NCBI GenBank assembly: GCA_965248535.1
Contig: CBDFJR010000002.1
Location: forward strand, 384,001 to 448,000
Length of the DNA stretch: 64,000 nt
Direction: 5' to 3'
Source: Phormidesmis sp.
GTDB taxonomy: Bacteria; Cyanobacteriota; Cyanobacteriia; Leptolyngbyales; Leptolyngbyaceae
The notes below the pieces were generated by a model. That model did not search any database and was not told the origin of the DNA. It saw only the letters and a program-made list of their open reading frames with translations. Below, piece after piece: positions 7,281 to 56,121 of this stretch (position 1 is its first letter; every line of letters starts with the position of its first letter). The position numbers were made by a program, and so were the translations under genes.

Positions 7281-8747
7281 CTAACTCGGCGGGAGACCCC
7301 ACACCAAACGAAGCGTTATGGTGTGGGATGAAAGCCAGGGCGTTGACGAGTTGTGTCCTTGACTATTGCTTAACGATGTTGCGCCAAGGCTTGGACACGA
7401 GTGTTTCGCCCCACTTCGTGAGGAGGAAACGCCACTGTCTCAGGCGCTCTAGCAAAATTGTTAATTGGGTTAGAATCGCGGAATGTTGAGCCTGACTTAC
7501 ACTTACCGAATCTATCCAGACCTCATCCAGGAAGCTGAAATGCTGTTCTGGTTGGAGCAATGTCGCAAGGTCTACAACTTTGCCTTGCGAGAGCGCAAAG
7601 ACTGGATGAATTCGCGCCAGTGCGCCGTCAACGCTTGCAGCCTCAGAGCGGAATTTATCATTCCAGCCAACGCACCCTATCCCGACTACTACAAACAAAA
7701 GAAAGCCCTGACTCAAGCCAAGAAAGAACGTCCAGACCTTCAGAAAGTCGATGCCCAAGTGTTGCAAGACATCCTGAAACGACTAGACAAGTCTTTCAAG
7801 TTCATGAAAGCGCGAGAATTTGGTTTCCCGCGCTTCAAAAAGTTTGGTCAGATTCGCTCGTTTGTGTTTCCGCAGTTCAAGGCAAGCCCACTCCGAGGGA
7901 CTCAGATTAAGCTGCCGAAGGTGGGATTGGTGCCCATCAACTTGCATCGTCCCCTTCCCGATGGGTTCGACCTCAAGCAAGTGCGCGTGGTGAAGAAAGC
8001 ATCGGGATGGTACGCCCAACTGATTCTGCAATGTGAGGTTCAAGTGCCCGATATTTTGCCCCATGGTGAACCCATCGGCATTGATTTAGGTTTGGAAAAG
8101 TTCTTGGCGGTTTCGACCGGAGCGTTGATTCAACGACCCCGCTTCTTTGTGGACTTGCAAGGCAAGCTGAAATGGCTGCAACGCAAATTGAGAAACAAAA
8201 AACAGGGTTCTGCGAACTACCGGAAAGTACAAGCCAAGATTCGACGATTGCACGAACAGATTCACGACACGCGGAGAGAGTTCCATTTTCAAACGGCTCA
8301 CCAGCTTTGTGATCAGGTTGGCATGATCTTTGCCGAAGACCTCAACCTCAAAATGATGAGTCGAGGGATGTTGGCAAAGCATTGTCTCGATGCTGCATGG
8401 GGTGGCTTCCTCAACATCCTGGAATGGGTGAGTTGGAAGCGCGGGGTGTTCTTCGCCCAGGTAGACCCCAACGGGACGAGTCAAACTTGCCCCAACTGCG
8501 GAGCGCATACCGGGAAGAAAGAACTGAGTGAGCGGGTGCATAAGTGTGGGGAGTGTGGATATGTCACCGACCGAGATGTAGCTGCTGCCCAAGTGGTAGT
8601 GCAGCGTGGACTTGTAGCGGTGGGACACACCGTGATACTGCCTGTGGAGGAAGGTTGCCTGGGAACCCCGATGAAGCAGGAAACCTCAAAGTCGACTTTG
8701 AGAAGCCCACTCCATACCGCCTAGCGGTTGGGGGGGGAGGATGTCAC
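7281..8747 (+). mobile_element. IS200/IS605-family (IS1341-like) element with tnpB and no intact tnpA
   Basis: Left hairpin CCCACACCA...TGGTGTGGG (7298-7327); related right hairpin 8705-8738 ending in ATGTCAC; left boundary approximate. Confidence 0.8.
7483..8724 (+). CDS. tnpB: RNA-guided endonuclease TnpB
   Basis: YTYRIYP N-terminus; RuvC GIDLG, AEDL, DRDVAAA; zinc finger CPNCG...CGECG. Confidence 0.95.
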   Translation: MLSLTYTYRIYPDLIQEAEMLFWLEQCRKVYNFALRERKDWMNSRQCAVNACSLRAEFIIPANAPYPDYYKQKKALTQAKKERPDLQKVDAQVLQDILKRLDKSFKFMKAREFGFPRFKKFGQIRSFVFPQFKASPLRGTQIKLPKVGLVPINLHRPLPDGFDLKQVRVVKKASGWYAQLILQCEVQVPDILPHGEPIGIDLGLEKFLAVSTGALIQRPRFFVDLQGKLKWLQRKLRNKKQGSANYRKVQAKIRRLHEQIHDTRREFHFQTAHQLCDQVGMIFAEDLNLKMMSRGMLAKHCLDAAWGGFLNILEWVSWKRGVFFAQVDPNGTSQTCPNCGAHTGKKELSERVHKCGECGYVTDRDVAAAQVVVQRGLVAVGHTVILPVEEGCLGTPMKQETSKSTLRSPLHTA

Positions 8748-16692: not shown

Positions 16693-17391
16693 TTAGGCGA
16701 TTTCGTCGGGGTTGACACCGAGCGATCGCAGTCGTTCTTTTAGCTGCTCAACCTGCTGTTCTGCTTGCTTTACCTGTTCTTCTGCTTCCTGTCGGGCCTG
16801 AGTTTCAGACCGGAGTGCCTGGGCAAGCTCACTGGGAATCAGCAGCTTTTCGCCTGTGTCTTCTCGATAAAAAGCAATCAGATGTCCATCGATTTCTAAT
16901 CGCAGCTTGAGCGGCTCGCTTAGCCCATCTGTAATTGGCTCATATTCATTTCGATGCAGCCGATAGCCCTTTAGTTTTTCTTCAATCCATTCACCTTTGG
17001 GGTCAAATAGCCAATATTCCGTCACACCTAACTGCTCATACAGCGTGCGCTTGAATCCTTGGTCTTGGTTTTTGGTTCCGGCTGAGGTCATCTCAAAAAT
17101 CACAGACGGAACTTGCCCCTCTTCCCAGGTTTTATAGTTGTCTCGTCCGCCGGGGGCAACATCAAAAATCACCATGACATCAGGAGCCACTCTCAACCTT
17201 GGATAACCCTGCGAATAGTAGAGAAACTGATTGCTTAAAACAGTCGCCTGCTGGCCCGCTAAATATTGAGTCAATACTTCTAGCGTCACCAAAATTGCAT
17301 ACAAGTGAAGATAAGATTCTGCCAAGGGTTCACCGTCAGAGCTTGGATAAAAAATTTCAGTCGTTTGCGCGATCGGGGAGAGACTGGTCAT
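16693..17391 (-). CDS. Uma2-family endonuclease-fold protein
   Basis: YPSSDGEPLAES, VAPDV, EYWLFDP; coiled-coil tail. Confidence 0.9.
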   Translation of the reverse strand: MTSLSPIAQTTEIFYPSSDGEPLAESYLHLYAILVTLEVLTQYLAGQQATVLSNQFLYYSQGYPRLRVAPDVMVIFDVAPGGRDNYKTWEEGQVPSVIFEMTSAGTKNQDQGFKRTLYEQLGVTEYWLFDPKGEWIEEKLKGYRLHRNEYEPITDGLSEPLKLRLEIDGHLIAFYREDTGEKLLIPSELAQALRSETQARQEAEEQVKQAEQQVEQLKERLRSLGVNPDEIA

Positions 17392-21317: not shown

Positions 21318-21967
21318 TCAAACAGACTCCCACCCTTGTTTTGCGATGATATCTTCCAGTTCAGACTCTAGGGCTGCAAAGGCAGGTAGGATGCGTAATG
21401 GACTAAAGTCATTAATGAGTTCTGAAACTCGATGAGTACGATCGCTGACTGAAAAACTACTCCTAAGCCGTCTTGGACGAAGATCACTGGCTTGGCGAAG
21501 AATCTCATGGAGAATGTTTTTAGGGTCAGACTCATGCTCAAGTCTTCTAATATCTGGAAGTTGCAATTCGATACTTCCGTTTGGATTAGACGCGGCTTGA
21601 CGCAAGGCAGCAATATCAAATAGCAGCCAAGCTTCTGTCATGCGAACTGGTACAACACAAACGGTTGGTACAGAAATAAGAGAATTAGCTTGATTAATAG
21701 CCGTGCGAATTTCATTGACGCGAGTCTTATGAGCCTCTCTCTCTGCATCACGATGGATAAATAAATATCACACGGATATAGATCTAAACTTAGTTTAATT
21801 CGCTTCTTAAACGTGTCTCTGAGCGACTTGTCTAAACTACGAAGATCTGCCCACTGGGGTTGAATAGCACAATGACTAAGGTGCGTTTGTAACAACCAAT
21901 TGATTACATGAATAAGTGCTCTATCTGAACTACCGTCAGAGAGCAAAGTATAGCGGATTTCCATCAT
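21318..21967 (-). pseudogene. DUF4276-like TOPRIM-type protein split by a 1-nt frameshift near 21765 (possible sequencing error)
   Basis: Adding one T restores PCDILFIHRDAE...VPVRMTEAWLL; overlaps the ATPase stop. Confidence 0.65.
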
Positions 21968-23505
21968 AATTGCTGACTAGGCAAACCTGGAAGTAAGAGT
22001 TGTTGAAAATCTTCTCTATCTATGACTCGACGCTTCTTAGATTTTGAAGACTTTGGTTTTTGATAATCTATACCATATCCATTATTTTCTAACTCTAAAT
22101 CTTGATCGGGAACTGGATTGAGATACGCAAGAAGTCTACCCTTAGCAATAACATTCACGCTATCAGACTCTGGATCTTTGAGTTGTCGCCAAGTCTCAGG
22201 TAGATATCCAAAACAAACTCTCTTAAACCTTTGACCTAGATGTATTGTGTCTCTCAACTCAGCTACTAGAAGGCTTTCTTCAGGTACTTGCATCACAACT
22301 GATGGTGAATGAGTATTAATAATTACTTGACGTAAAGGATTATCCAACCCAATAGCCTCATCCGTGTCAGTAGCAATATCTTGAAGAAGGTGAAGAATTT
22401 TTGGAATGCGCTCTGGATGAATTCCATTCTCTGGCTCTTCAAGGCATAAAAGACCTTGAGCTTCTGGATCTAGCTCAAGCACTGCCAGCGCTAAAAACCG
22501 CATTGTTCCATCTGAAAGTGCTTTAGCTGGGTGAGATGTTCCGTCTCGACTCGTAACCATTAGAGTAAGAAGTTCACGCCTATTATCTCGATCAACCCAT
22601 ACTTTATCAACATCATCAATTAAATTTGCTAAACGATTTGCGATCTCGTAATAAACTCGATCATCTAGTTCGTCATCAGATCGTTCATTTTTGTTTTTAT
22701 CTAATCTTGCAAGATGATAAAGAGTTGCAGCTAAGTGGGAACCGTCCGCTTCTAATTTAGTCGGAGCAGTAAATTGGTCAGGCCGCCTTAAAGAAGACGG
22801 TTCTAGCTGGAGCAGCCGCCAAGATTGTATTTCCCGTCTTGCTAGTAGTGCTGTAGGGCTTTCAGCAGCATTTGCCACAGATAAGACGGTTCGAGGAAGG
22901 TTAGCCGCCGAGCGAGATAAAGGTTGACCTCTACTTCCGCCATCTTGATGCAGTCTGATTAATCGACTTACACCATCATCTTCAGTAGAAATAAACGGTG
23001 AGGTTCTTCTTCCCTTTACTGCTGATTTACGCCAGACAGGAAGATTAGGAAATAGTAAATTTTTTGAAGCATCTCCTAGATTAATATGCACCAACTCTTC
23101 TTTAAGAATTTCCAAAGAGCCGAGAGAGCGAAATCTGTCATCAGACCTGTAAGTAAGTGTTAAAGAGTAGCGTAAAAAAGTAATACTCGCTTCTGCCTTC
23201 TGTCCTAAATCATCTTCGCCTCCGGCTGGCACTATCATCTCTGCCTCGAAAGACATTTCATCACTATAAGTTTCACCTACACGATGAAAGAGACTTCGTA
23301 CGTCCCCTGTTCTCCCTTCTTCATCCCGAACGGACAAAGCAGCTTCAATCAAAGGTAAATCTGCTAGTGCACTTAAGAATCTAATAGCATCGAAAAGGTT
23401 GGATTTGCCGACACCATTAGCTCCGGCAATGCAGGTAAATGCCCCAAATCGAACATCTACATTGACAAGATTCTTGAAGCCAGAAACTTTCAGCCGGGTC
23501 AGCAT
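21964..23505 (-). CDS. AAA_21-type ABC-like ATPase
   Basis: GANGVGKSN, LSDGT, LEEPENGIHP, NTHSP. Confidence 0.88.
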   Translation of the reverse strand: MLTRLKVSGFKNLVNVDVRFGAFTCIAGANGVGKSNLFDAIRFLSALADLPLIEAALSVRDEEGRTGDVRSLFHRVGETYSDEMSFEAEMIVPAGGEDDLGQKAEASITFLRYSLTLTYRSDDRFRSLGSLEILKEELVHINLGDASKNLLFPNLPVWRKSAVKGRRTSPFISTEDDGVSRLIRLHQDGGSRGQPLSRSAANLPRTVLSVANAAESPTALLARREIQSWRLLQLEPSSLRRPDQFTAPTKLEADGSHLAATLYHLARLDKNKNERSDDELDDRVYYEIANRLANLIDDVDKVWVDRDNRRELLTLMVTSRDGTSHPAKALSDGTMRFLALAVLELDPEAQGLLCLEEPENGIHPERIPKILHLLQDIATDTDEAIGLDNPLRQVIINTHSPSVVMQVPEESLLVAELRDTIHLGQRFKRVCFGYLPETWRQLKDPESDSVNVIAKGRLLAYLNPVPDQDLELENNGYGIDYQKPKSSKSKKRRVIDREDFQQLLLPGLPSQQL

Positions 23506-24702: not shown

Positions 24703-25095
24703 TCAAGGCATTCCTAAGAAAGATTTGAGAGCAGCTTTATGGCGATTCTTTAAGCGTTTAGACTTGAGTCCGCCTTGCTGAATTTTTGCGAGAATCGCTA
24801 GTGAACAAGATCCTTGTGGAATCGAACTGTTCACCGTAATCAATCCAGCGAGTTGACTAGCATTCATCTCACGAGCAAACTGATAGGCAACGATCGACTC
24901 ACGAACTATAAAGCTTGGCACGTCTGAACCGGGTACTAAAATACAGGCAGTTTCAGAATTAGGTCTGCGGCTAGTAACATTAACAAACAAATAATTACTA
25001 CTAGAAGTCTGGGCAATTGCAATGTAGAGATGTTCTCCGTTAGGAGGGGTATCGATCAAAAAAGCATCTCCCAAATTAATGGGGATGCTAGCCAC
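24703..25095 (-). CDS. Putative toxin, PemK/MazF-like fold
   Basis: 130 aa; GDAFLI..EHLYIAI..FVNVTS pattern; start overlaps the Panacea gene stop. Confidence 0.55.
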   Translation of the reverse strand: MASIPINLGDAFLIDTPPNGEHLYIAIAQTSSSNYLFVNVTSRRPNSETACILVPGSDVPSFIVRESIVAYQFAREMNASQLAGLITVNSSIPQGSCSLAILAKIQQGGLKSKRLKNRHKAALKSFLGMP

Positions 25096-25645
25096 TCAAA
25101 ACCTCGTCTAAAAACGCTTCTCGCATCGCTTCTTGCCGAATATCTTCTATCTCTGCGGCAGTTTTGCCTACATTTTTGAGAATGTCTTCGATTGAAATCG
25201 GCACCGCAGAGCCTTGAGGATCGCTCCACTCTGGTAGGTCATGAGTCCATTTAGCGACTTCAAGCGGGTCAAGATGCCCAAACGATCGATAGACTTGCTC
25301 AAGAATTTCTTCCTCTTCTTCACACAGGTCTTCGGCTCCGGGATCTTTTAGCAAGAAAACCTGATTTGCGTGACGCGAAGCAATAAACTGCGACCATAAA
25401 GGCAAGGCTTCTTCGGCAGGCTTTCCCTTGATTAGATCATAAACGCCGCTCAGAACCGGGCCGTAGTCCATCGACACGTAATGATCCCCTGTGATCGGCT
25501 GCTCCATGCGCTCTAGTGCCACCCGATCGGCGATGTAAAGCATCTTCAGCAAGCCTAAATAGTTCATCGGCTTGCCGTGCAGTTTCAATAGCACCGCCGC
25601 AGCTTCAACCGCTTTCTCTGAATGGAACCGAAACTTGATCTGCAT
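25088..25645 (-). CDS. Panacea (DUF4065/SocA-like) antitoxin
   Basis: LLKMLYIADR, ITGD.YVSMDYGPV, WTHDLPEW. Confidence 0.88.
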   Translation of the reverse strand: MQIKFRFHSEKAVEAAAVLLKLHGKPMNYLGLLKMLYIADRVALERMEQPITGDHYVSMDYGPVLSGVYDLIKGKPAEEALPLWSQFIASRHANQVFLLKDPGAEDLCEEEEEILEQVYRSFGHLDPLEVAKWTHDLPEWSDPQGSAVPISIEDILKNVGKTAAEIEDIRQEAMREAFLDEVLSG

Positions 25646-28715: not shown

Positions 28716-29261
28716 ATGCTCAAACGATTTGTTGCGCTGGTGCTGGTGGTTTTTAGTCTGAGTTTGCAGGGCTGCGTGTCGGGGGTCGGGGGCTTAAAAA
28801 GCTATGCCGATAGCACTGATGGCTATCGATTTCTCTACCCTAACGGCTGGACAGAGGTGAAGGTGGCTAACGGGCCTGATGTGGTGTTTCATGACATTAT
28901 CAAGCCGACTGAAAACGTTAGTGTGGTGATCAATCCCACTCAGGGGCAAAAAACCCTCAGCGATCTAGGAACGCCGAGCGAGGTGGGCTATAGGTTGGGC
29001 AAAAGCGCGATCGCGCCTCCTGACTCAGGTCGCACCGCCGAGCTAGTGAATGCCGAAGCGCGAGAACTGGGCGATCAAACCTATTATTTGCTGGAATATC
29101 TGGTCAAGCTGCCCGGCGACCAAGAGCGCCACAACCTTGCCAGCGCGATCGTCTATCGGGGCAAACTCTATACGATTAATGCCTCCACCTCAGAAGCCCG
29201 ATGGGACAAGATGAAAGATCTGCTGACAACGGCCGTGAAATCCTTCTCGATCGACGGCTAA
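28716..29261 (+). CDS. psbP: Photosystem II PsbP-like lipoprotein (CyanoP)
   Basis: Lipobox [24 protein letters not shown]. Confidence 0.9.
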
Positions 29262-29275
29262 ACCCGATTGACTCT

Positions 29276-29940
29276 ATGATTCCTTTTGTTTTGGCTTCTG
29301 CGTCTCCGGCTCGAAAACGACTCCTTGAGCAGGCGGGCATTGACCCGATCGTGCATCCCAGCGATTTTGATGAATCTCAAGTCAAACTCACCGACCCGGC
29401 AGAGTTGGTAAAGGTCTTGGCCGAGCAAAAAGCCCTGGCAACGATGCGATCGCTCTGGGAAAACCGGGGCGATCTGCAACTTGTCGGCTACGGTCGATTG
29501 TTTTCGCGCACGCCAGGGGTGATCTTGGGGTGCGATTCGGTTCTATCGCTCAATGGCGAAATTTACGGCAAGCCTGCGGATGGGCCGACGCGATCGCTCG
29601 TTGGCAGCAGATGCGCGGTCAAGTGGGCGACCTCTACACCGGGCACGCATTGCTGGTTCCCTATTCAGAGCAGGGAATGCTGCTGCCCTCGGCAGCGATC
29701 GTGCGTGCTCAGATGACGCGAGTCTTTTTTGCGGAGGTCAGCGATCGTCAGATCGAGGCTTATGTTGCCACGGGCGAACCGCTTTTTTGTGCAGGCTGTT
29801 TTGCCTTAGAAGGGCGAGGCAGTCTGTTGATCGACCGGATAGAAGGCTGTCACACCAACGTGATCGGGTTGAGTATGCCGCTGCTGCGACAGATGCTGGC
29901 TGAGGTCGAGGTTGACGTGACAGATTTTTGGCAGACGTAG
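29276..29940 (+). CDS. maf: Maf-family nucleotide pyrophosphatase, frameshift near 29582
   Basis: [12 protein letters not shown]...YGKP in one frame; YVATGEP..CAGCF, NVIGL in another. Confidence 0.85.
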
Positions 29941-37498: not shown

Positions 37499-40400
37499 AT
37501 GTTGAACGTACCTGAGCGCGCACCGTCTTCTATAAAACCCGTTAAAGACAGACCGAGTTTGGTGCAGTGGCTTAAGCAGGTCATTGATTTGCCGCAGGTG
37601 CGGGTGCAGGTGCGGTTTCGGGGCAATAATCTCTATATTTTGTGTGAGGGGCAGATCTGTCCGCCGCGATCGCTGCTGTTGCTGCGAGTCGTGCGGGCGT
37701 TAGCCAAGACAAGGTTAGATCGCTTTATTGCCAGTGGTCAGCCTCAAGTTTATCAAGTCTTTCTCTATGGTCGGGCCCTAGGTCGGCCTCGCCCTGACTG
37801 GGCAGAGGTGATTGATCTCCATCAGATTGATCGCTACCTAGAAAACGCTGCAAACAGGCACCTCGACGAAAAAGGGGGGGACTCTGTCCGATGACGCGGC
37901 GGTTTCTTCGCTAGCGATCGCGACGATTCAACTCGCTCAGCAGGGGCGACCGGAGGCGATCGCTCGATATTTAAGTGAGTCGTTTAGCAGTTTAGGGGTG
38001 GCGGTGCGCGCCAGCGTCAAGCCTATTCCGTCAAAAGAGGGCGAGGCTGACGCGCTGCGGCTGTGGGTGGTGTGTGAGTCAGCCTATAGCCCTGATGCGT
38101 CTCTGATGGCGGAATCGATCGCGCAAAAACTTCGAGATTTGGCGCTAACTGGCTTTGAGTCGGCGATCGTGTTGAGCCAAGTTCACGGAGAGCTACAGCC
38201 TGACTGGACGCTGCGAGTCGATCTGACTCCTCCTGATGAGATGCTCAAAGCTTGGGCCCGCTGGGGCGACCCTGCCGCGATCGCTCGGTTGCTCGATCGC
38301 ACGCTGCGCGATCAGCAAATTCGTGCGTCTGCCACTTTCAAAGACACAACGCTGCATCTTTCTTGTGGGGGAGAAAAATTGCCTGATCGGGGCCGAGTCA
38401 TGGCAGCTATCAAGCCTTTGTTGGATGCGATCGCGCCTCAAGGAATTTTGTCGGCTGCGGTCTATGGGGTCGAACCGTCGTCTGACTCCTCTAAACCTTC
38501 TGATTCTCAGCTTGACGGCCCTGCCTGGGTTGAGTGGCTAAAGCTGCCTGCCTCAGTTCACCCGGCGCTGTCAGACTCGACCCACTGGCTAGCCGAAAAA
38601 GGAGACATTCCCGCGATCGCGTTTTTGCTGAGTCGGCTACTTAACCCCGATCTCGATCGCCAACTGGCGACGGGCGGCATTCGCATTCAGGTGCGGCAAA
38701 AAGAAGATCTCTTGCACATCATGGCCGATGCGCCCCTCTGCCCACCTCAAAACCGGGTCGGATCGGCGATCGCTCAGTTCCTCAAGCCGCTCGATATTCC
38801 GGGGGTTGCCGGAGTGAGAATCTATGGGCGCAGAGCCGGACAAGCTCGCCCTGCCTGGAGCTATGGCTCTGATTTTGGGTTGCGCGATCGCCTAGTGCCT
38901 GCCGCAACTCCAGAATTTGCTGCCTCAGATGAATATGTGGGCGATCTGCTGACTGCATCGGGCGAGTTAGCGCGGCGACCTGACCTGACGGCTGATGATC
39001 TGCGAGTTGCCCTCGATCGGCTCCGAGACAGAATGCAGGGCGTTTTGACCCGATCGCAGCTATTTGTTGTAGTGGCGACACAGAATTCCCGATCGCCCGA
39101 CTCAACGCCAAAATCTCAAACCACCAAACTGGCTTTAGTGTGGGCTACCCTCGGTCTGCTGCTCACCGTGCAGTCTGATTGGATCTTGGGACAACTGCTC
39201 AAGCCAAAAATGGAGCTAAAGCCGATGGCGATCGCCACGGTCTCTCCGTCTCCAGTAGTCTCAGACGAGATCCCGCTGCCTCAGATATCGCTGCAAAAAC
39301 CGGGCATTGGTCGCGGCGATGCGTTTAATGGCTCTGGCTTTACTCAGTCGGGGCAAACGGTGCTTTCAACGGATGATCCAAGTCCGGCACCGGGGGCGAT
39401 CGCCGCACCCTCTCCTGCTAAAGCCTTAGTTGCGGCGCAACTTCAGCAAAAAGCCGTGGTTGATGCGGCGCGATCGCCCTACCCCACTCTTAACGCTCGA
39501 CAGCTTGACGAAAAGCTGGTGCTCTATCGTCAATATATTGAGAAGTCAGGAGCACCTGATGTCTTGGTGGTGGGCAGTTCTAGAGCCATGCGAGGCATCG
39601 ATCCAACTGCGTTGCAGCAAGCGTTGGCTACCCAAGGGTATCCCGGTTTGAAGATCTTTAACTTTGGGGTGAATGGGGCTACGGCCCAAGTCGTCGATTT
39701 AATTGTGCGTCGCCTGCTGCCTGCCGAAAAGCTGCCCAAGCTGATCATCTGGGCCGATGGCTCACGGGCGATCAACAGTGGGCGAGTCGATGTCACCTAT
39801 AACGCGATCGCGGTCTCCCAGGGCTTTAAAGCGATTCCAGTTGATGGGTCTCCGGCGATCGCCCCTCCCCCAACTCCTCCTGCGCCTGAGTCATCAATCA
39901 CGACTTCGTTAGGCACGATTTCGTCTACTAACTCGGTGGTGGCTGACAGCTATCAAACCGTCAACACTTGGCTAAACCAGACGTTAGCCAATCTTTCTAG
40001 CACCTACGCGCAGCGAGAATCGCTTAAAACCCTGTTTCAGCGTGAGGTCGCCTCTGGATTTAAACCTCGGTCTAACGGTGATCAAGACACTGACCTGACG
40101 ATCGTGCAAGACGGCCAGGGGCTGATCGATGTCGCTGGCTTTTTGCCGATTTCAAATCGATTTAACCCAGCAACTTATTATCAGAAATATTCCAAAGTGG
40201 CGGGCAACAGCGATGGCGACTATGCTGATTTTCGGCTAGAGGGCGGTCAGTCTGCGGCGATCGCCTCTTTAGCCACTTTCACGCAAGCGCAAAAAATTCC
40301 TCTAGTGTTTGTCAATCTGCCCTTGACGGCTGACTATCTCGACTCAGTGCGCCGACAGCATGAGCAAACCTTCCAGCAATATATGCTCCGCACTTCTGCT

Positions 40401-40550
40401 GAGTTAGGGTTTACCTACCGCAATTTGACCGAAGAATGGAAAGCCGAGCCTGACTTCTTTTCTGACCCTAGCCATCTCAACCGCTATGGGGCGTTTGCGG
40501 TCGCTAGTCACCTAGCCAAAGATCCGTTGATTCCGTGGGCCAAGCGTTGA
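37499..40550 (+). CDS. Large DUF1574/SGNH-like domain protein, frameshift near 37880
   Basis: ORFs 37499-37894 and 37998-40550 share repeated domain-like segments; C-terminal GSSRA, NFGVNGA, FSDPSHLN. Confidence 0.7.
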
Positions 40551-46087: not shown

Positions 46088-49000
46088 GTGCCCCGAATTT
46101 TTGACAACATTGAGCTAAAGTTGTTGCCCATTTTGCAAGAAACGCTGCAAGCTGCAAAACGAGCAGACTTCTGTGTGGGCTACTTTAATTTGCGGGGCTG
46201 GCGACACCTCGATCGCCTAATCGAGCAGTTTCCGGGAGGTGAGCAGGGCTGCTGTCGGTTAATGGTGGGGATGCAAAAAATGCCGCGCCAACAGCTTGAA
46301 AGTGCGTTTTCGCTGACTGGCTCAGACTGGGAGATTGATCAGCGCGATTCGATTCGATTTAAGAAACAAGCCGCGCAAGAGTTTAGAGAGCAACTGACGA
46401 TCGGGGCACCCACCAACGACGATGAGGCAGGATTGCGGCGACTTGCCCATCAACTCAAGGCAGGAAAACTCGTCGTCAAGCTCTATCTGCGGCATCCCCT
46501 TCACGCCAAACTGTATTTAATTCACCAAAACAATCCCAATTTGCCGACGATCGGGTTTCTCGGCAGCAGCAATTTAACACTTTCTGGACTGCAATATCAG
46601 GGAGAGTTAAACGTCGATGTGTTGGATCATGATGCGACGAATAAATTAGAACGCTGGTTTGACGAACTTTGGAGCGATCGCTTCTGCCTTGATATTTCTA
46701 AAGAACTCGCGCAATTAATTGATGAAAGCTGGGCACGGGAGGCACTCATTTCGCCCTATCACATCTATTTAAAGATGGCTTATCACCTCTCGCAAGAGGC
46801 GCGAATCGGATTGTCTGCCTATCGAGTGCCCAAAGAGTTTCGCGATCGCTTGTTTGATTTTCAAAGTGCTGCTGTCAAGATTGCTGCCCAACACGTCAAC
46901 AAACGGGGAGGAGTCTTAATTGGCGATGTCGTCGGATTGGGCAAAACGATGGTGGGGTCTGCCCTAGCGCGGATTTTGCAAGAAGATTTGTTGTTAGAAA
47001 CGTTGATTATTTGCCCCAAAAATCTCGTCTCCATGTGGCAGGATTATGTGCGGGAATATCGACTGATTGCGGAAGTGATTTCGATCAGTCGCGTTCAGAC
47101 CGAGCTACCGAATTTGCGGCGTTATCGAGTTGTGTTGATTGATGAAAGTCACAACCTTCGCAACACGGATGGAAAACGCTATCGAGCCATCCAAGAATAT
47201 ATCGCGATGAATGAAAGCAAGTGTATTTTGCTCACCGCAACGCCCTATAACAAAACCTATTTAGATTTATCCGCACAGCTACGATTATTTATTCCTGAAG
47301 ATAAAGATTTAGGCATTCGTCCAGAACAACTGCTGCACGAGTTAGGAGGCGAAGCGACCTTCAAGCGGAAGCATCAGGTGCCAATCCGATCGCTACGGGC
47401 ATTTGAGTTTAGTGATCACGCCGATGATTGGCGAGATTTAATGAAGCTGTATATGGTGCGACGAACGCGCAGTTTTATCAAAGCAAACTATGCTCAAGAT
47501 GATAAAGGACGGAAGTTTTTAGAATATCAAGATAAAACCCGCGCTTATTTCCCTGATCGGATTCCTAAAACCGCAAAATTTGAGATTGGCACTCCGCAAG
47601 ATGATCCCTACGCAAGACTCTATTCTGATGGAGTCGTAAATGTGATCAATCAACTAAATTTACCGCGCTATGGATTAGGAAATTACATTCAAGCGATGGT
47701 TAAACGCAACGTGAAAGATAAGAGTGATGAAACAGAACAGCGATTGGTCGAAGGATTATCAAGAGCCGGAAGGCGATTAATGGGATTTTGCCGCACCAAT
47801 TTATTCAAACGATTAGAAAGTAGTGGAGTGGCATTTATTCAATCGCTAGAGCGACACATCTTACGCAACTACATTTATTTGTATGCGATCGAGCATGGCT
47901 TAGAGATCCCGATCGGAACTCAAGATGCCGATTTGCTCGACACTCGCACCAGCGATGAAGACTCAGATTCGCTGCTGGCTTCACTATTTGATGTCGAAGT
48001 TGAAGAGACAGAAGGACAGGTTCGAGAGGTGCTAGATGTCTCTGAAACCGATTATCGATCGCGATCGGCAGAGGTTTATCAAGAGTATGCAACGCAGTAT
48101 CGACGACGGTTTAAATGGATACGATCGTCGCTGTTTACCAAACAGTTGGGCAAAGATTTGCAGGCGGATGCCAAAGCACTCACGGGTGTGTTGCAACAAT
48201 GCGGAGAATGGAATCGGAGGACGAGATGCCAAGTTAACCACATTGTTGACCCTGTTGCAGGTTGAGTATCCAACCGAAAAAGTTCTCATTTTCACGCAGT
48301 TTGCAGACACGGCGCGATATTTAGAAGCGGCATTACAAGAGGCTGGGGTGACCAACATTGCTAGGGTATCAGGGGATTCCACCGATCCCACGTCAAGCGT
48401 GTGGCGATTTAGTCCAGACAGTAATCGGAAGCGCGATCTGATTGCACCAGAAAATGAATTAAGAGTCCTCGTTGCGACAGACGTATTAAGTGAAGGACAA
48501 AACTTGCAGGACTGCGCGATCGTGATTAACTACGATTTGCCGTGGGCAATTATTCGGCTGATTCAACGGGCGGGACGGGTCGATCGAATTGGGCAAAAGG
48601 CGGACAAAATTTTGTGCTATTCATTCTTGCCTGCGGAAGGAGTCGATCGCTTAATCAACTTGCGGGGACGATTGCAGCAGCGACTTCAAGAAAACGCGGA
48701 AGTGGTGGGAGCCGATGAATCGTTTTTTGAAGACTTGTCCGATCGGGTCATGCTGGATTTATATAACGAAAAAGCGGGACTGCTCGACGGCGAGGAAGAT
48801 ACAGAAGTTGATTTGACTTCTGAAGCGTTTCAGATTTGGAGCAACGCAACGGCAAACAATCCGGGATTGAAGAAAACGATCGAAGAGATGTCTAGTGTGG
48901 TCTATTCGACGCGCCGCCACACGCCCACCGCCACCCAACCAGAAGGCGTTTTGCTCTATATGCGAACCGCAGAAGGCAACGATGCGCTGGCGTGGCTCGA

Positions 49001-49466
49001 TCGCGAAGGTGAAAGCGTCACCCAGTCACAGTTAGCGATTTTGAGAACGGCTGCCTGTGAGCCAGAGACACCCGCGATCGCTCGTCATCCGCTCCATCAT
49101 GATCTCGTCAAAAAAGGCGCAGATTGGATCGCTGAAGATGAGCGCAGCATCGGCGGACAGTTGGGACGAAAATCGAGTGCGCGATATCGAGCCTATGAGC
49201 GACTCAAGCGATATGCCGATGAGGTGAAGGGCACGCTGTTTGAGTCGGACGAACTGCTGAAAGCGATCGACGATATTTATCAACATCCTCTCAGGCAATC
49301 AGCGATCGACACCTTAAATCGGCAACTCAAAAGCGGAATTGGAGATTCGCAATTAGCAGAGTTGGTGATGGCGCTAAGAACCGACGATCGACTCTGCATA
49401 ATTCACGATGAAGGTCAGCAACGAGAACCTCAAATTATCTGTTCATTAGGATTATTTCAGTCGTGA
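46088..49466 (+). CDS. PLD-nuclease/SNF2-like helicase fusion, frameshift near 48215
   Basis: HAKLY...GSSNLT; GDVVGLGKT, DESHN, TATP; second ORF has SEGQNLQ and QRAGRVDRIGQ. Confidence 0.88.
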
Positions 49467-49482
49467 TTATGGAGTTAGCACA

Positions 49483-49846
49483 ATGGCAATCGTAGAGCAG
49501 TATCGGCAATATGTTCAGCAGCTTCTCAGCGATCGAGCCGCTCGATCCATGAAATCGAATCCTCAAGTCGAGGCTCAAACCGTTTTTGATCGCGACCATG
49601 ACCACTATCAACTCGTGTATGTCGGCTGGAAACGGAACGGCGTTTGCTTTGCAATGCTTGGGGCAACGCGATTATGGCTGTTTACTTCATCTCGATATCA
49701 AGGATGGCAAAATCTGGATTCAATACGACGGCACAGAGGGCGGTATCGCGAATGAGCTAGTGGAATTGGGCGTTCCGAAGGAAGACATTGTTTTGGGATA
49801 TCATCCTCCTTCTGTTCGACGACTTACAGAATTTGCTGTGAGCTAA
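49483..49846 (+). pseudogene. xisI: XisI-family gene disrupted by ~22-nt insertion
   Basis: FD..HDHYQL..VGW, then HLDIKDGKIWIQYDGTE.GIA.EL...GVPKEDIVLG in a shifted frame. Confidence 0.85.
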
Positions 49847-49874: not shown

Positions 49875-50286
49875 TTACCAGTGACGAATTACTGAGTAGG
49901 TATCGAAAGCCTTATCCGAACTGATGATTGGAATTTTCTCCGTCAATGCTTGAGCGATTAAAAGTCGATTACCCTTCGGGAACTGCGAAGCAACCAAAGG
50001 GATCTCGATGATGATAGGGCAACGTCGCGACTGTAGCTGCGTGAGAAATCTCGATCGGCAAAATCTCAAACTCATTCACCTGAATTTGTTGCTGCATCCA
50101 AAACTCAAACGATTCAGGCAACTGATACTTTCCAATACTAATTTTGATCGCAATTTTCCAGTAGGATGCAGGGCTAACGAACAGATCATTGAGTGGATCG
50201 ACGATTAGAGTAGAAGCAACCTTACTGAGAGAACGATCGTTCAGCACAAACCACAAAAATGCCTGAGTATCGAGTAACAATCTCAT
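49875..50286 (-). pseudogene. PIN/VapC toxin disrupted by 25-nt insertion
   Basis: MRLLLDTQAFLW; removing 49970-49994 restores HHRDPFDRLLIAQA. Confidence 0.85.
49970..49994. mobile_element. Very small hairpin insertion resembling cyanobacterial small dispersed repeats
   Basis: TACCCTTCGGGAACTGCGAAGCAAC; inserted at G^ATCG (minus strand) with no target duplication. Confidence 0.65.
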
Positions 50287-50513
50287 GGCATATAATCGCC
50301 AAAATCTTCCAAATGGGTTTGATCATCAGACAAAATCACCAGGGTTCCTGCTGCGCTTCCAGGCTGCCGTGGTTTTCGAGGTGTGGGCACTTCTGCAATC
50401 AGTCTTGCGATCGCTCGATTCCCCGAAATAATCTGCACTTCTTCACCCGGTTGCAACCCTGCAATTAATTCAGGTAGATGAAGTTGAGCCTCCGCTAACG
50501 TAATGTGAGCCAT
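50283..50513 (-). CDS. Phd/YefM-like antitoxin
   Basis: ITLAEAQLHLPELI..GEEVQI..ARL; ATGA overlap with the PIN gene. Confidence 0.8.
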   Translation of the reverse strand: MAHITLAEAQLHLPELIAGLQPGEEVQIISGNRAIARLIAEVPTPRKPRQPGSAAGTLVILSDDQTHLEDFGDYMP

Positions 50514-50638
50514 TGCTCGATTCCACCATTGACTACACGCTCTATTCTACTTTTTCTGATCCAGTTGGAGTGTTTGGGAGTAAAACGGAGAAAGTTTGCG
50601 TCATATTTGTAACAGCAGCCCCCGATTTTTACTGTCTT

Positions 50639-53600
50639 ATGCAATTTGATTTCAAGAAGAGCCGCCAGTATTTGCAAGCGTTTGCCTTCGGAGATTTGTT
50701 TCGGGAGGTCTTGGGCTGGTCGAAGCCGACCGTTCGCAAGGCGGAGGAGTTGGAGATTGAGGGGCAGCTTTACGATCGCCAAATGATTGCCGAGCTTTCG
50801 GGGGTGGCGGTCTATGAGGTGACGGCGCACGATGGCGCGATCGCGGTTGAGAAGGTGCGAAAGCAAATCTATCAGCAGACGGCAGAGATCTCGCTGGAGA
50901 ATTTGTTGATTTTTGTGGATCGCGATCGGACTCAGAGTTTTTGGTATTGGGTGAAGCGGGAAGACAAGAAGCGGATTGGGCGATCGCTGTCGTATTTTGC
51001 GGGGCAGTCGGGGGATTTGATTTTGGGCAAGATTAGTGCCCTAATGGTCGATTTTGAGGAGTTGGGAGACGAAGCGCCGTCAGTTGTCGCGGTGGCGAAA
51101 AAGCTCAAGGATGCGCTGGATGTCGAACGGGTTACGAAGAAGTTTTACAAGGAATTTAAAGAGCATTTGGAGTGGTTTGTTGAGCAGATTAAGGGAATCG
51201 ATCACGAGAACGATCGCCGTTGGTATGCGTCGGTGATTTTGAATCGGCTGATGTTTGTCTACTTTTTGCAAGATAAGGGATTTGTGGATGGGAATCCCAA
51301 TTATTTGCAGGATAAGTTAGCGCAACATCAAGGCAAAGATTATTACAAAGCGTTTTTGTGTGTGCTGTTTTTTGAGGGATTTGCGAAGGCTGCACCCAAT
51401 CGATCGGAGCCAACGAATCTTCTTTTGGGCAATATCAAATATTTGAATGGGGGATTATTTTTACAACATCGGATTGAGAAAGACAATACGATCTCTTCGA
51501 GTCATCCGCAAGGGATCGCGATCGCGAATGAGGCATTTGAGAAAACGCTGGCGTTATTTGAGCGCTATTCGTGGAATTTGGATGACACGCCGGGGGGACA
51601 GGATGATGAAATTAGCCCGTCGGTGTTGGGCTATATTTTTGAGAAATATATTAACCAAAAAGAGTTTGGGGCTTATTACACTCGTCCTGAGATTACAGAA
51701 TATTTGTGCGATCGCACGATCAATAAACTGATTCTCGATAAGGTGAACGCGGAGTCGAAACGGCGGTTTGAGTCGATCGAGGAACTGCTGTTTAATCTCG
51801 ACACGGATCTGTGTATTCGACTGTTAGAGACTATATTGCCAGGGTTATCGCTGCTTGATCCGGCTTGTGGGTCGGGGGCGTTTTTGGTGGCGGCGATGAA
51901 GACGTTGATTAATATTTATAGCGCGGTGATTGGCAAGGTCGAGTTGTCGAACGATCGGACGCTCAAATCGTGGCTCAAAAAGGTACGCGATGAGCATAAG
52001 TCAACGGCGTATTACATCAAAAAGCGGATCATTACGGACAATCTCTATGGTGTGGACATCATGGAGGAGGCGACGGAGATCGCCAAGCTGCGGTTGTTTT
52101 TGGCGTTGGTGGCTTCGGCGCAGAGTTTGGATGAGTTGGAGCCGTTGCCGAATATTGATTTTAATGTGATGGCGGGGAATTCGCTGATTGGTCTGATTAG
52201 GGTCGATGAGGATGGGTTTAATGAGTTAGACGGAATGGCGATCGAGCCGACTCAGAGAAATCTGCTGAAGCCAACGGCGATCCAGGGAAGTTTGTTGCCG
52301 ATGTTGGCGGCGAATGAATATCGGCGGATTTTAGACGAGAAGAATAAGAGTATTGCACTGTTTAAGCAGCAGGCGTTTAGGGCGGATGATTCGACTGAGC
52401 CAGAGATTAGAACGGATATGCTCAAGGCGAGTATTGATGAGCTAAACGGCAAGTCGCAAATCAAGCTCAATCGGCTGTTGTTTGATGAGTTTGGGCGGTT
52501 GAAGATTAAGTTTGAGCAGGCGCAGGCGACGGGCAAGCCCACAAAGCGACTGTTGGAGATGAAGGATATCGATCGCTTGGAGCCGTTTCACTGGGGCTAC
52601 CATTTTGATCAGATTATCAATGAGCGGGGCGGGTTTGATGCGATTATCGCTAATCCACCGTGGGAAGTGTTTAAACCAGACGCAAAGGAGTTTTTTCAGA
52701 AATATAGCGATCTGGTGACGAAAAAGAAAATGGATATTAAGGCATTTGAGAAACACCAAACAGAATTGCTAGAAGATCCAGAAGTTGCAGCAGCTTGGTT
52801 GCAATATCAGAGCCAGTTTCCTTATGTAAATCTCTACTATCGCACTTCAGATAATTATAGAAATCAGATTTCGGTGATTGATGGGAAGAAAGCAAAAAGC
52901 ACTGATATCAACCTATACAAACTTTTTCTAGAACGGTGTTTTAGTCTCCTGAAACCGAGTGGAGAATGCGGAATTGTGATTCCTAGTGGCTTGTATACCG
53001 ATTTGGGATCGAAACAGTTGCGAGAAATGCTGTTCAGCAAAACTCGGATCACAGGATTATTCTGTTTTGAGAATCGCAAGACAATCTTTGAGGGGGTTGA
53101 TAGTCGTTTCAAATTTATTGTTTTGTCATTTTGTAAAGGAGATCGGACAGAAAGTTTTCCAGCCGCTTTTATGCGTCACGATGTCAGAGAGTTAACTGAT
53201 TTTCCAAATCTCAATAGCTTACAGATTAGCGTTGACTTAATTCGCCGACTATCGCCAGACTCTTTATCTATCATGGAGTTTAAGAATAGCGTAGATGTGC
53301 AAATCGCTGAAAAAACGCTCCAATTTCCGTTGCTAGGTGATCAAATTCCTGATAGGTGGAATCTGATACTTGGACGAGAATTTCACATGACGGACGATAA
53401 AAATCTCTTTCAATCTGAATCAATTGAAGGCAGACTTCCTTTGTACGAAGGCAAAATGATTCATCAGTTTACTCACACATTCTCTCAGCCTAAATATTGG
53501 ATCGATGAGATAGAAGGTAGAAAAGCGTTTCTTTCAAGACGAAAAGAGGACTGTGGGCAAGAACTGAACTATCAAAAATACCGTTTTGCATACAGAGCAA

Positions 53601-54693
53601 TTGGGAGAAGTACAGATTCTAGAACTCTAATTGGGACAATACTACCTAAAAATACTTTTTCTGGACACTCAATTAACGTTGGTTCATCTATTGAAGACTT
53701 AAGCCACGTACTCTATTTATGTGCTGTACTGAATAGCTTTTGTTTCGATTTTGCGTTGCGGCAACAGGTATCTGCTAATCTAACAATCTTCTTTATTCAC
53801 CAAACCCCTGTTCCTCGGCTAACAACAGGCGATCGCTTCTTCGCAGAAATCGTAGAACGCGCCGCAAAACTCATCTGCACCACCCCCGAATTCGACGACC
53901 TCGCCCAAGAAGTCGGCTTAGACTCCCACAAAAACGGCATCACCGACGAACGCGATCGTGCCCAACTCCGCGCCCAACTCGACGGCATGATCGCCCACCT
54001 CTACCACCTCACCGAATCCGAATTCGCCCACATCCTCAGCACTTTCCCGATCGTCCCCGCCGCCACCAAACAAGCCGCGATCGAAGCCTATCGCACCTTT
54101 GCCCCACCCGCAGGCGACACCGCGATCGCCACCCTCATCACCCAAGGCGAAAGCGCCACCCTCGAATTCAAATCCACCGCCCGCTGGAACCTCAAAGAAG
54201 ACAAGAAAGATCGCACAATGGAAGAGGTCATTCTCAAAACGATCGCCGCCTTCCTCAACACCCAAGGCGGAACCCTCTTGATTGGAGTCGATGACGCTGG
54301 AGACCCGATCGGACTTACCCCCGACTACAACACCCTCCAAAAAAAGAACCGCGACGGCTTTGAACTCTGGCTCATGGGCGATCTGTTGCTCAAAGAATTA
54401 GGCAATGATCTCGCTCCCTTACATTGCCATCAGCTTCCACACCCTCAACGGGCAAGACCTCTGCAAAAATCACCCTCAGCCCTGTCTATGTCACGTGACC
54501 CGCCTCAAGAATCTTTGTCATCCGCTCAGGCAAGACCAAAAACGACAAACCCAGTCAATCGAAAGACATCAAAGAACTTTTTTATTCGGGCTGGCAAATT
54601 AAACCAATGCTTCACCAAAAATCCCTCGACAAACCCAGCGAGATCAGCCACTACATCAAACAACTGTTTGGTAATCTTGCAACTTCACTCTGA
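50639..54693 (+). CDS. Eco57I-like N6-adenine DNA methyltransferase with TRD and C-terminal Schlafen/AlbA_2 domain; 3' end frameshifted after ~54420
   Basis: GAYYT, LDPACGSGAFL, IANPPW; C-terminal GESATLEFKS..AFLNTQGGTLLIGVDD; probable true end SEISHYIKQLFGNLATSL* at 54693. Confidence 0.85.
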
Positions 54694-55520
54694 AAGGCAT
54701 TGGCAAAATAGAATTCGAGTTATAAAACCACCGATTTGACCATGCCTCAGTTTCACTAAACCGTAGATTTGACGAAGCCCTGATACAATTGAAGTCGATC
54801 CGAGATCGTGTCCTACGACCAGCCAAAATATCTAGAAACGACGTAACCCGACTGCGAATACTGCTTTGCGAGAAGTTTACATTCAAGCCGTCTTGATACC
54901 ATCGCTCCAAAATCCTAGACTCTATCAAAGAATCGATTGACTACGATGACACCTACAACGATGACAAAGCCCAACCCGCCAAATCGCCATGAGAAACCGT
55001 GATTGCTTGACACATCTGACTATGGTCATCTCAGGCTTATGCGCCAGAACTAACGCTTCCCAATTCAGAGTCCAGATCGTAACGATCAACTCCGAATCTG
55101 ACCACTGATCGCTGAATCACGAGGTGTGTATTTTTGGAGCCGGATTCGCAACTCCGAAGAAATTCTCTACTGGACTTCGGCCCCGAACAATTTGTAACTT
55201 TGACTGCGTGACTATCTCAGACTCCTTTCCAGATTTGAACCCGATCCATTTTTCACCTTGCCCAAAGCAAGATGAATTATGGAAACTGCCGCCGCGATCG
55301 AGAACAAACTTCTAACACTTGTCGCCGTCAATGGGATTCAAGGCTCTAATACAGATTTTCCCGCAATTTGTGCTGTTCACAGCCTCGATGACCCCACGAA
55401 ATGTTGGAGCCACGATTTGGGTAATTCTTACAACTCAGAGATGGCAAAAAGATAAAACCACCATTGACAATCTTTCAAACCTGTCTCCCGATCGCTCCCT
55501 TCTATAATCGCTTGACCACC

Positions 55521-56000
55521 TCAAACCGACTCTTCCAATTGCAGCAAAAGCTGACAGAATGCCTGCACATCCTCAGCCAATCTGTTATGGCATTCGGGCA
55601 GCATCTCCACCAGCGCTTGCACCCGATCGGGCTTTAACTCAGCGCTATATCGGTGCATAACCCCATGACGAAACCCGCGATAATCATTGAGTTGCTCTAA
55701 CGTCTCTGCTCGAATCACCGCAGGGCGATTTTTTGGAATCTGAAGACCCATCTGATCCAGCAACTCTCGATACGAACTCGCGCCTGTTGAGGGCGATTGA
55801 TCAACCTGCTTGGCAATCTCCTCAAAAATCCGTTCAACGCCCATGTAGAAGTTTTGCAGACTCAGCGCTGCCGCTTGCACATAGTCCCGATCGCCCGTTT
55901 TCTTCGCTTTCTCGATTTGAGAACTCGCAGATTTCACCGTTGAGTCAATCTGGTCAAGCTCCTTTTGAACTCTGGCAACTAAGACTGTGTATCGGCTCAT
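55521..56000 (-). CDS. HEPN (HepT/DUF86-like) RNase toxin
   Basis: LQNFYMGVERIF, YRGFRHGVMHRY (Rx4H motif). Confidence 0.8.
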   Translation of the reverse strand: MSRYTVLVARVQKELDQIDSTVKSASSQIEKAKKTGDRDYVQAAALSLQNFYMGVERIFEEIAKQVDQSPSTGASSYRELLDQMGLQIPKNRPAVIRAETLEQLNDYRGFRHGVMHRYSAELKPDRVQALVEMLPECHNRLAEDVQAFCQLLLQLEESV

Positions 56001-56121
56001 AGCTCGACTCCTAACGCACTTGCTCCTGATATATGCTTGCATCTTAGCGATCGGAACCCGTAGACCTGAAAATTGCTGTCAGAATGTCATTATATCCCGA
56101 CGCACTTTGCGACTTTTGATT

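Follow-up and report, generated by a model that had tools for sequence, protein, structure and literature searches.

The window, that is, the whole 64,000-nucleotide stretch of Phormidesmis DNA analysed here, carries a large DNA methyltransferase gene that runs in frame into the beginning of a Schlafen/AlbA_2 domain and, upstream of it, a gene for an HKD nuclease joined to a SNF2 helicase. The features of this region are as follows.

46088..49466, plus strand: HKD (PLD-type) nuclease and SNF2 helicase (Pfam PLDc_2, SNF2-rel_dom, ResIII and Helicase_C)
49483..49846, plus strand: XisI-family gene, split into 49483-49755 and 49586-49846
49969-50286, minus strand: PIN-domain (VapC-like) toxin ORF (Pfam PIN, E 7.8e-7)
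50283-50513, minus strand: small ORF upstream of the PIN toxin, without a Pfam match
50513..54739, plus strand: largest ORF of the region, 1408 aa counted from the first TTG
50639, plus strand: ATG, the likely methyltransferase start (residue 43 of the longest ORF; gene call P0001, 1366 aa)
50639..54100, plus strand: methyltransferase body, comprising an N-terminal domain, a gamma-class N6-adenine methyltransferase, the target-recognition region and a conserved C-terminal helical segment
52739..53789, plus strand: variable target-recognition region, with a low G+C of 0.36-0.42 against 0.5-0.6 in its flanks
54101..54418, plus strand: first ~106 residues of the Schlafen/AlbA_2 domain, in frame (PF04326, family HMM and alignment)
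54417..54467, plus strand: next 17 residues of the tail, readable only in frame +1 (14 of 17 identical; tblastn with P0002 and P0005)
54465..54498, plus strand: second shift, a short homologous stretch and then TGA (three-frame translation, tblastn and DNA reading)
54514..54669, plus strand: two imperfect tandem versions of the domain's last strand and helix (tblastn matches to the final 26 and the final 15 residues of P0002)
54737..54739, plus strand: stop codon of the ORF, at the end of an out-of-frame extension

By its sequence, the ORF from 50639 to 54739 on the plus strand is an Eco57I-family gamma-class N6-adenine DNA methyltransferase. The Pfam Eco57I profile matches it at E 3e-25 (89.7 bits against a cut-off of 25.3), MmeI_Mtase and N6_Mtase match the same ORF, the PADLOC type IIG model REase_MTase_IIG matches at 2.7e-110, and the translation contains both the AdoMet-binding motif DPACGSG and the catalytic motif NPPW. 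The body of the protein is colinear with its intact relatives. Pfam places no nuclease domain within the methyltransferase chain, the nuclease candidate being the separate HKD-SNF2 gene, and a phmmer search of the whole protein against PDB sequences gave no match at E 0.001. Because seven genomes of the same genus hold no close homologue (best E 5.5e-23), the methyltransferase gene is accessory.

The protein from a metagenome denoted P0002 is 92-100% identical to the window protein over residues 1-700 and 84-100% identical over residues 1051-1250, with a drop to 26-80% over residues 701-1050, the target-recognition region; its Schlafen tail is intact. Judged from this comparison, the target-recognition region looks like a swapped specificity module, and it is mainly there that the two alleles differ. 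A metagenome scan with P0002 as the query did not recover the protein's own contig, and its best match was 60% identical. Base composition also changes along the gene: the stretch 53800-54400, which covers the helical segment and the start of the tail, is C-rich (G+C 0.52-0.61, with GC skew down to -0.46), in contrast to the 5' half of the gene, where the skew is +0.2 to +0.45.

Two overlapping frames, 46088-48265 and 48036-49466, together make up the helicase gene and are separated by a single frameshift near 48215-48225; the intact homologue L014 (1145 aa) aligns accordingly, with residues 20-729 in one frame and residues 747-1144 in another. This frameshift may reflect genuine decay or a one-base mistake in the assembly; taken as it stands, it makes the locus look like a restriction-like system in decay, of which the methyltransferase core may persist as an orphan methylase. 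PADLOC matches the helicase gene with its 'HKD+Snf2' model C3a139 and with a DrmD-like model. Between the helicase and methyltransferase genes sit the XisI gene, whose profile positions 1-52 fall on one ORF and 52-110 on the other (Pfam and a three-frame view), and the PIN toxin-antitoxin pair, in which the ORF at 50283-50513 is, from its position, likely the antitoxin.

A HepT-like toxin gene (55521-56042, minus strand) has no recognisable MNT partner, and the nearby 90-aa ORF at 54656-54928 (minus strand) has no Pfam match. Further away lie other genes of defence or mobile-element type: an AAA_21/AbiEii-like ATPase (21964-23505, minus strand), a SocA/Panacea antitoxin-domain protein (25088-25645, minus strand), a Uma2-family putative endonuclease (16693-17391, minus strand) and an IS605-type TnpB (7483-8724, plus strand), and an 850-aa ORF (37998-40550, plus strand) matches nothing in Pfam or PADLOC.

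The first-pass annotation had described a Schlafen/AlbA_2 domain fused to the C-terminus of the methyltransferase and had quoted a peptide from it; the peptide is indeed in frame with the ORF 50513..54739, and PF04326 identifies it as AlbA_2/Schlafen. The profile SLFN_AlbA_2 matches residues 1213-1277 at E 9.9e-14 (52.3 bits against a Pfam cut-off of 25.3), and this is the single PF04326 match in the whole genome (5.03 Mb, 5 contigs). Homology to intact tails runs in frame from 54101 to 54418, with 98 of 106 residues identical to P0002 by tblastn. Within this stretch, the sequence and the alignment place an Ex4ExK motif at 54149-54172 and a conserved Asp at 54293-54295, so that the acidic E-x4-E and D residues named in the annotation are kept and align with the catalytic-type residues of Schlafen nucleases. 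The match stops early, however: the window copy covers only profile positions 1-58 of 118, whereas an intact relative spans positions 1-112, and when 19 intact tails were combined into a family HMM, its match to the window was confined to positions 1-107 (E 2e-46).

What follows position 54418 is wreckage. Homology leaves the frame there through a first +1 frameshift (f0 to f1) at the CCC/TT junction at 54416-54420, and a second (f1 to f2) lies inside the A5 run at 54465-54469. A TGA at 54496-54498 then stops the frame that remains homologous to intact tails, several codons are missing from the 3' part of the tail through small deletions, and the last segment is present twice, as copy A at 54514-54582 in f2 and as copy B at 54578-54598 in f0 and 54625-54669 in f2. 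The duplication is supported by the direct DNA repeats D3 and D4, which match at 12 of 12 and 15 of 17 bases, 84-87 nt apart, and form an imperfect repeat of ~85 nt at the 3' end. The indels that had been noted in the last ~270 nt are thus real features of the assembled sequence, but their extent had been understated, since frameshifts are accompanied by a stop, lost codons and a duplication.

The complete AlbA_2 fold, with its C-terminal strands and helix, is not found in the window copy. Even with both +1 shifts corrected, the domain would still stop at the TGA, and the strand and helix beyond it hold two residues that are kept in 161-162 of 166 relatives. With two +1 frameshifts, the TGA, lost codons and a partly duplicated segment falling on the completing strands and the terminal helix, the fold would be lost, and the domain in the window is most likely unable to fold, inactive and a dead relic. 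The proposal of a working effector in this copy accordingly fails, the last third of the fold being destroyed. The damage appears to be recent, because P0002 is so close over residues 1-700 and has an intact tail.

We considered whether the tail might be intact in the organism, with its indels introduced by sequencing or assembly, and regard this as quite improbable. It is true that the damaged 3' end is known from the assembly alone, that the first +1 shift sits at a CCC/TT junction and the second within an A5 run, and that a genome in five contigs fits a long-read assembly. A Maf-like gene elsewhere in the window (29201-29900) is also frameshifted at a short homopolymer run, near 29582-29590 in a short G/C run; within the ORF its Pfam profile is matched over positions 2-81 of 187 only, the remainder lying in another frame. 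Because this frameshift is far from the island, the assembly may hold scattered single-base indels, so that neither the helicase shift nor the XisI shift is safe evidence of decay and one or two of the shifts in the tail could themselves be errors. However, the tail holds at least three frame changes within ~250 nt, against three other single frameshifts in the 64-kb window, and the TGA, the missing codons and the duplicated 3' segment persist after the shifts are corrected and are not products that indel errors yield. The large housekeeping ORFs of the window are whole, including PEP carboxylase (1034 aa) and phosphorylase (859 aa).

Reads from elsewhere were also searched. No listed sequencing run held half or more of the sampled words or came from the strain itself, and none of the holders was an RNA run. 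The four metagenome runs examined represent contigs of relatives, and their coverage ends at ~54500 except for a trace at 54546-54639 in one run; at the site of the first shift, relatives' contigs from two of the metagenome runs are without one base, at 54415 or 54420.

Phase variation through repeat tracts is known from restriction-modification genes, and one of the shifts here lies in a short A run; both points would suit programmed frameshifts, by recoding or phase variation, that give the full-length domain in a fraction of cells. We find this hardly credible, given that translation would have to get past a stop as well as three or more separate changes of frame, that the runs are only 2-5 bases long and that relatives have plain open frames. 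Genuine decay of the tail therefore remains the reading that we follow.

We then turned to homologues of the fusion. Of 2361 candidates retrieved with residues 1120-1300 as the query, 1629 were long proteins with E values of 0.001 or better; PF04326 was present in 120 of 120 among the matches listed, and most were 1300-1360 aa long. Their source names are 'Eco57I restriction-modification methylase domain-containing', 'putative DNA binding domain-containing' and 'RNA-binding domain-containing' protein. Our survey of the locus covered 163 loci, 80 of them from species genomes, 80 from metagenomes and 3 from relatives of the window's genome. Among the 144 in which the end of the methyltransferase core was in view, 47 had an intact tail, 5 a broken remnant and 90 no tail, and 2 ran off the contig. 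The fusion is thus real and common in homologous methyltransferases; the alternative effector tails for which the first-pass annotation had proposed to look did not appear, as none of the 144 loci carried another C-terminal extension of more than 40 residues. Nor was a split or standalone AlbA_2 gene found near the tail-less methyltransferases when the family HMM was run over 1.5 kb downstream in three frames, which returned only the five decayed remnants.

An HKD-SNF2 homologue lies beside the methyltransferase in 142 of the 163 loci, which indicates that the conserved unit is a two-gene, ATP-dependent restriction-like system; 17 of the 21 loci without a helicase match have less than 3.5 kb of upstream DNA. 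By a crude count, the helicase is in one open frame in 98 of the 163 loci, and 32 are flagged as broken or partial; from these sequence counts we draw no link between the state of the helicase and that of the tail. One locus (L021) has an intact tail beside a helicase remnant (103 bits, query residues 1-74), which shows that the tail does not strictly depend on an intact partner. In five further loci (L116, L124, L151, L067 and L087) the methyltransferase match extends over more than 5 kb, a length that points to an insertion within the gene, and the tail of L087 also has an in-frame stop after 103 residues.

Decay or loss of the tail is, on the evidence of the aligned sequences, a recurrent event in this family. 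Mapped on a FastTree tree of 127 cores, tail state requires at least 17 changes, against a mean of 42 when states are shuffled, and 10-12 changes are already required if only well-supported branches are counted. L046, a tail-bearing Leptolyngbyaceae protein, is sister to the window's protein. Fourteen of the tail-less rows, which include a large Nostoc clade, stop in a short piece of the linker that leads up to the domain. As a clade, 15 methyltransferases of the tree stop at or just past a linker stub of 11-26 residues; its Nostoc loci include L017, L019, L033, L039, L040, L065, L082, L085, L092 and others, and as read from the tree and the stubs this clade lost its tail in the past and has passed the loss on by descent. 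In three Nostoc loci (L036, L045 and L061), ~58 homologous residues persist beyond the stop.

The intact tail itself is strongly conserved. Of the 166 tails compared, all have K24, 165 have E17, 165 have E22 (a further one has D at this place) and 164 have D65, the Asp of a GVxD stretch. The tail of L046, the closest intact one in the surveyed loci, gave an AlphaFold2 model with a pLDDT of 90.5 and a pTM of 0.86, for which the best Foldseek matches were DIP2311 (3lmm, 6e-6) and the SAMD9 DNA-binding/tRNase domain (7ksp and 9o0d), followed by SLFN13 (5yd0, 1.9e-4) and SLFN14, 5, 11 and 12. The family profile aligns the tail's Glu, Glu and Asp with ES..IEFK and GVDD of SLFN11, 13 and 14; the aligned SLFN13 residues are its catalytic E205, E210 and D248. 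The same profile matches CbCash at 5.8e-4. CbCash is described as cleaving tRNA by means of E17, D22 and K24 and as being activated when its Schlafen domains assemble (PMC13462974). Similarly, tRNA cleavage and abortive infection by RorSlfn5 are reported to need an Ex4DxK motif, and the motif Ex4(E/D)xK is given there for prokaryotic Schlafens and SLFN11 alike (bioRxiv 10.1101/2025.07.24.666596).

By analogy with these enzymes, the intact tail in the family is most likely a latent tRNA/RNA endonuclease that would serve as a second-line effector, and this reading is best placed at the level of the family because the catalytic residues are nearly invariant in the 166 tails. That the RNase would act as a back-up effector of abortive infection, as the annotation had suggested, is plausible from the CbCash and RorSlfn5 analogy together with the conservation of the residues. 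A two-copy complex prediction of the intact tail (score 0.02, mark 0.42) was counted neither way.

The tail might instead be a non-catalytic nucleic-acid-binding or sensing module that helps the methyltransferase-helicase complex to bind DNA or RNA. The sources that name relatives 'putative DNA binding domain-containing protein', the crystallisation of the SAMD9 domain with DNA (7ksp) and the dispensability of the tail, which is absent from 90 of the 144 loci, would all agree with such a role, as would the description of several mammalian Schlafens that lack the catalytic residues and have non-nuclease roles (PMC13462974). We nevertheless consider it unlikely: a mere binder would have little reason to keep Ex4ExK and the Asp in 164-166 of 166 tails, and the same SAMD9 domain is also in the PDB as a tRNase domain (9o0d).

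Together, these observations make it probable that the window carries a decayed Schlafen tail on an Eco57I methyltransferase with an HKD-SNF2 partner, in a restriction-like system that is itself decaying, and that the intact form of the tail is a latent endonuclease. According to this explanation, the methyltransferase would be the modification and specificity partner of the upstream HKD-nuclease/SNF2-helicase, and the pair would be a restriction-like system of two genes, ATP-dependent and widespread. A tail of ~165 residues with a near-invariant Ex4ExK...D is carried by about one third of the family's members. The nuclease of an intact tail would be switched on when the domains come together, as we infer from the CbCash and pSlfn papers, and the window copy has kept its first ~106 residues, catalytic-type residues included, and lost the remainder of the fold. 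Little of this has consequences for the present genome, given its broken domain and a system that looks inactive. At the level of the family, the picture that emerges from the survey is one of a conserved HKD-SNF2/methyltransferase pair with an optional tail, either Schlafen or nothing, that keeps its catalytic residues almost without change and is frequently lost.

More tentatively, and as a model that we hold to be somewhat short of probable, the tail may be a covalently tethered guard, that is, a latent tRNase triggered by a stalled or phage-inhibited restriction complex, whose cost would explain its losses. If so, that cost would account for the repeated loss and breakage of the tail, with at least 10-17 changes of state and the Nostoc stub clade, and the window allele would be a natural 'disarmed' variant of the almost identical intact P0002, caught soon after inactivation.

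Several parts of this picture have counterparts in print. The idea of the fusion is not new, as it is abundant in databases and is mentioned by Weickert, Liu and Strecker (Nat Commun 2026, PMC13462974), where methyltransferase-Schlafen fusions appear as 'Cluster 3' in one sentence and a figure. Going by that description, their cluster, a Schlafen/AlbA_2 domain fused to a restriction-modification methyltransferase and placed among defence-linked prokaryotic Schlafens, resembles the present family; that sentence and figure offer no mechanism, and the copy in the window differs in being broken. In the portion of the supplementary text covered, the terms methyltransferase, Eco57I and 'Cluster 3' have no match, and our literature search found no paper with both 'Schlafen' and 'Eco57I'. 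CbCash (PDB 9ylu), a CRISPR-associated Schlafen described in the same paper, has, like the family tail, one prokaryotic Schlafen domain, centred on E-x4-(D/E)-x-K, but it is fused to a Csx15 sensor and switched by cA4, whereas the tail in the window is fused to a DNA methyltransferase. RorSlfn5 and pSlfn share the Ex4(E/D)xK motif, the logic of fusing sensor to effector and abortive infection by tRNA cleavage, although the sensor of RorSlfn5 is described as Ig-like and as recognising a protein of phage T5 (bioRxiv 10.1101/2025.07.24.666596). The main text of that paper, by Taboada et al., contains 0 mentions of methyltransferase fusions; the present architecture may be one of its 55 types, in the supplements.

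The two core genes also recall larger defence systems. 'Type-2 BREX-related' systems are described as combining an HKD-endoDNase and Swi2/Snf2 helicase with an N6-methyltransferase (NAR 2026, PMC12839542), and both these and DISARM class 1 resemble the window in pairing an HKD-SNF2 effector with a large N6-adenine methyltransferase; PADLOC also gives weak DrmD and DrmMI matches in the window. However, the BREX-related type 2 systems are described there as also needing a DUF499 ATPase and DUF3780, and DISARM needs DrmA and DrmB. Pfam detects none of DUF499, DUF3780, DrmA or DrmB (DUF1998) on the window's ORFs of 90 aa or more, and we rejected assignment to either system because these required genes are absent from the window.

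Among eukaryotic proteins, mammalian SLFN11, 13 and 14 and the SAMD9 tRNase domain share with the tail its fold, as judged by Foldseek, and its aligned catalytic residues, but the mammalian core is two-lobed and joined to helicase or other domains, whereas here a single domain of ~165 residues forms the end of a bacterial methyltransferase. A functional parallel to a tethered guard is PrrC with EcoprrI, a latent tRNA nuclease that is silenced by a restriction-modification enzyme and released when phage inhibits restriction. PrrC is a separate protein in which an ATPase domain accompanies a nuclease domain of a kind not related to Schlafen, and the system that it guards is type I. The comparison with PrrC and type I restriction drawn in the first-pass annotation therefore holds as a shared concept, but not for homology or for a type I host system: Pfam matches include no PrrC-like family in the methyltransferase chain, and since the proteins are unrelated the analogy is functional only. 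The candidate nuclease here differs in being a Schlafen domain covalently attached to the methyltransferase of an HKD-SNF2 system, and, if the guard model is correct, the methyltransferase tail would be a single-chain analogue of PrrC-EcoprrI.
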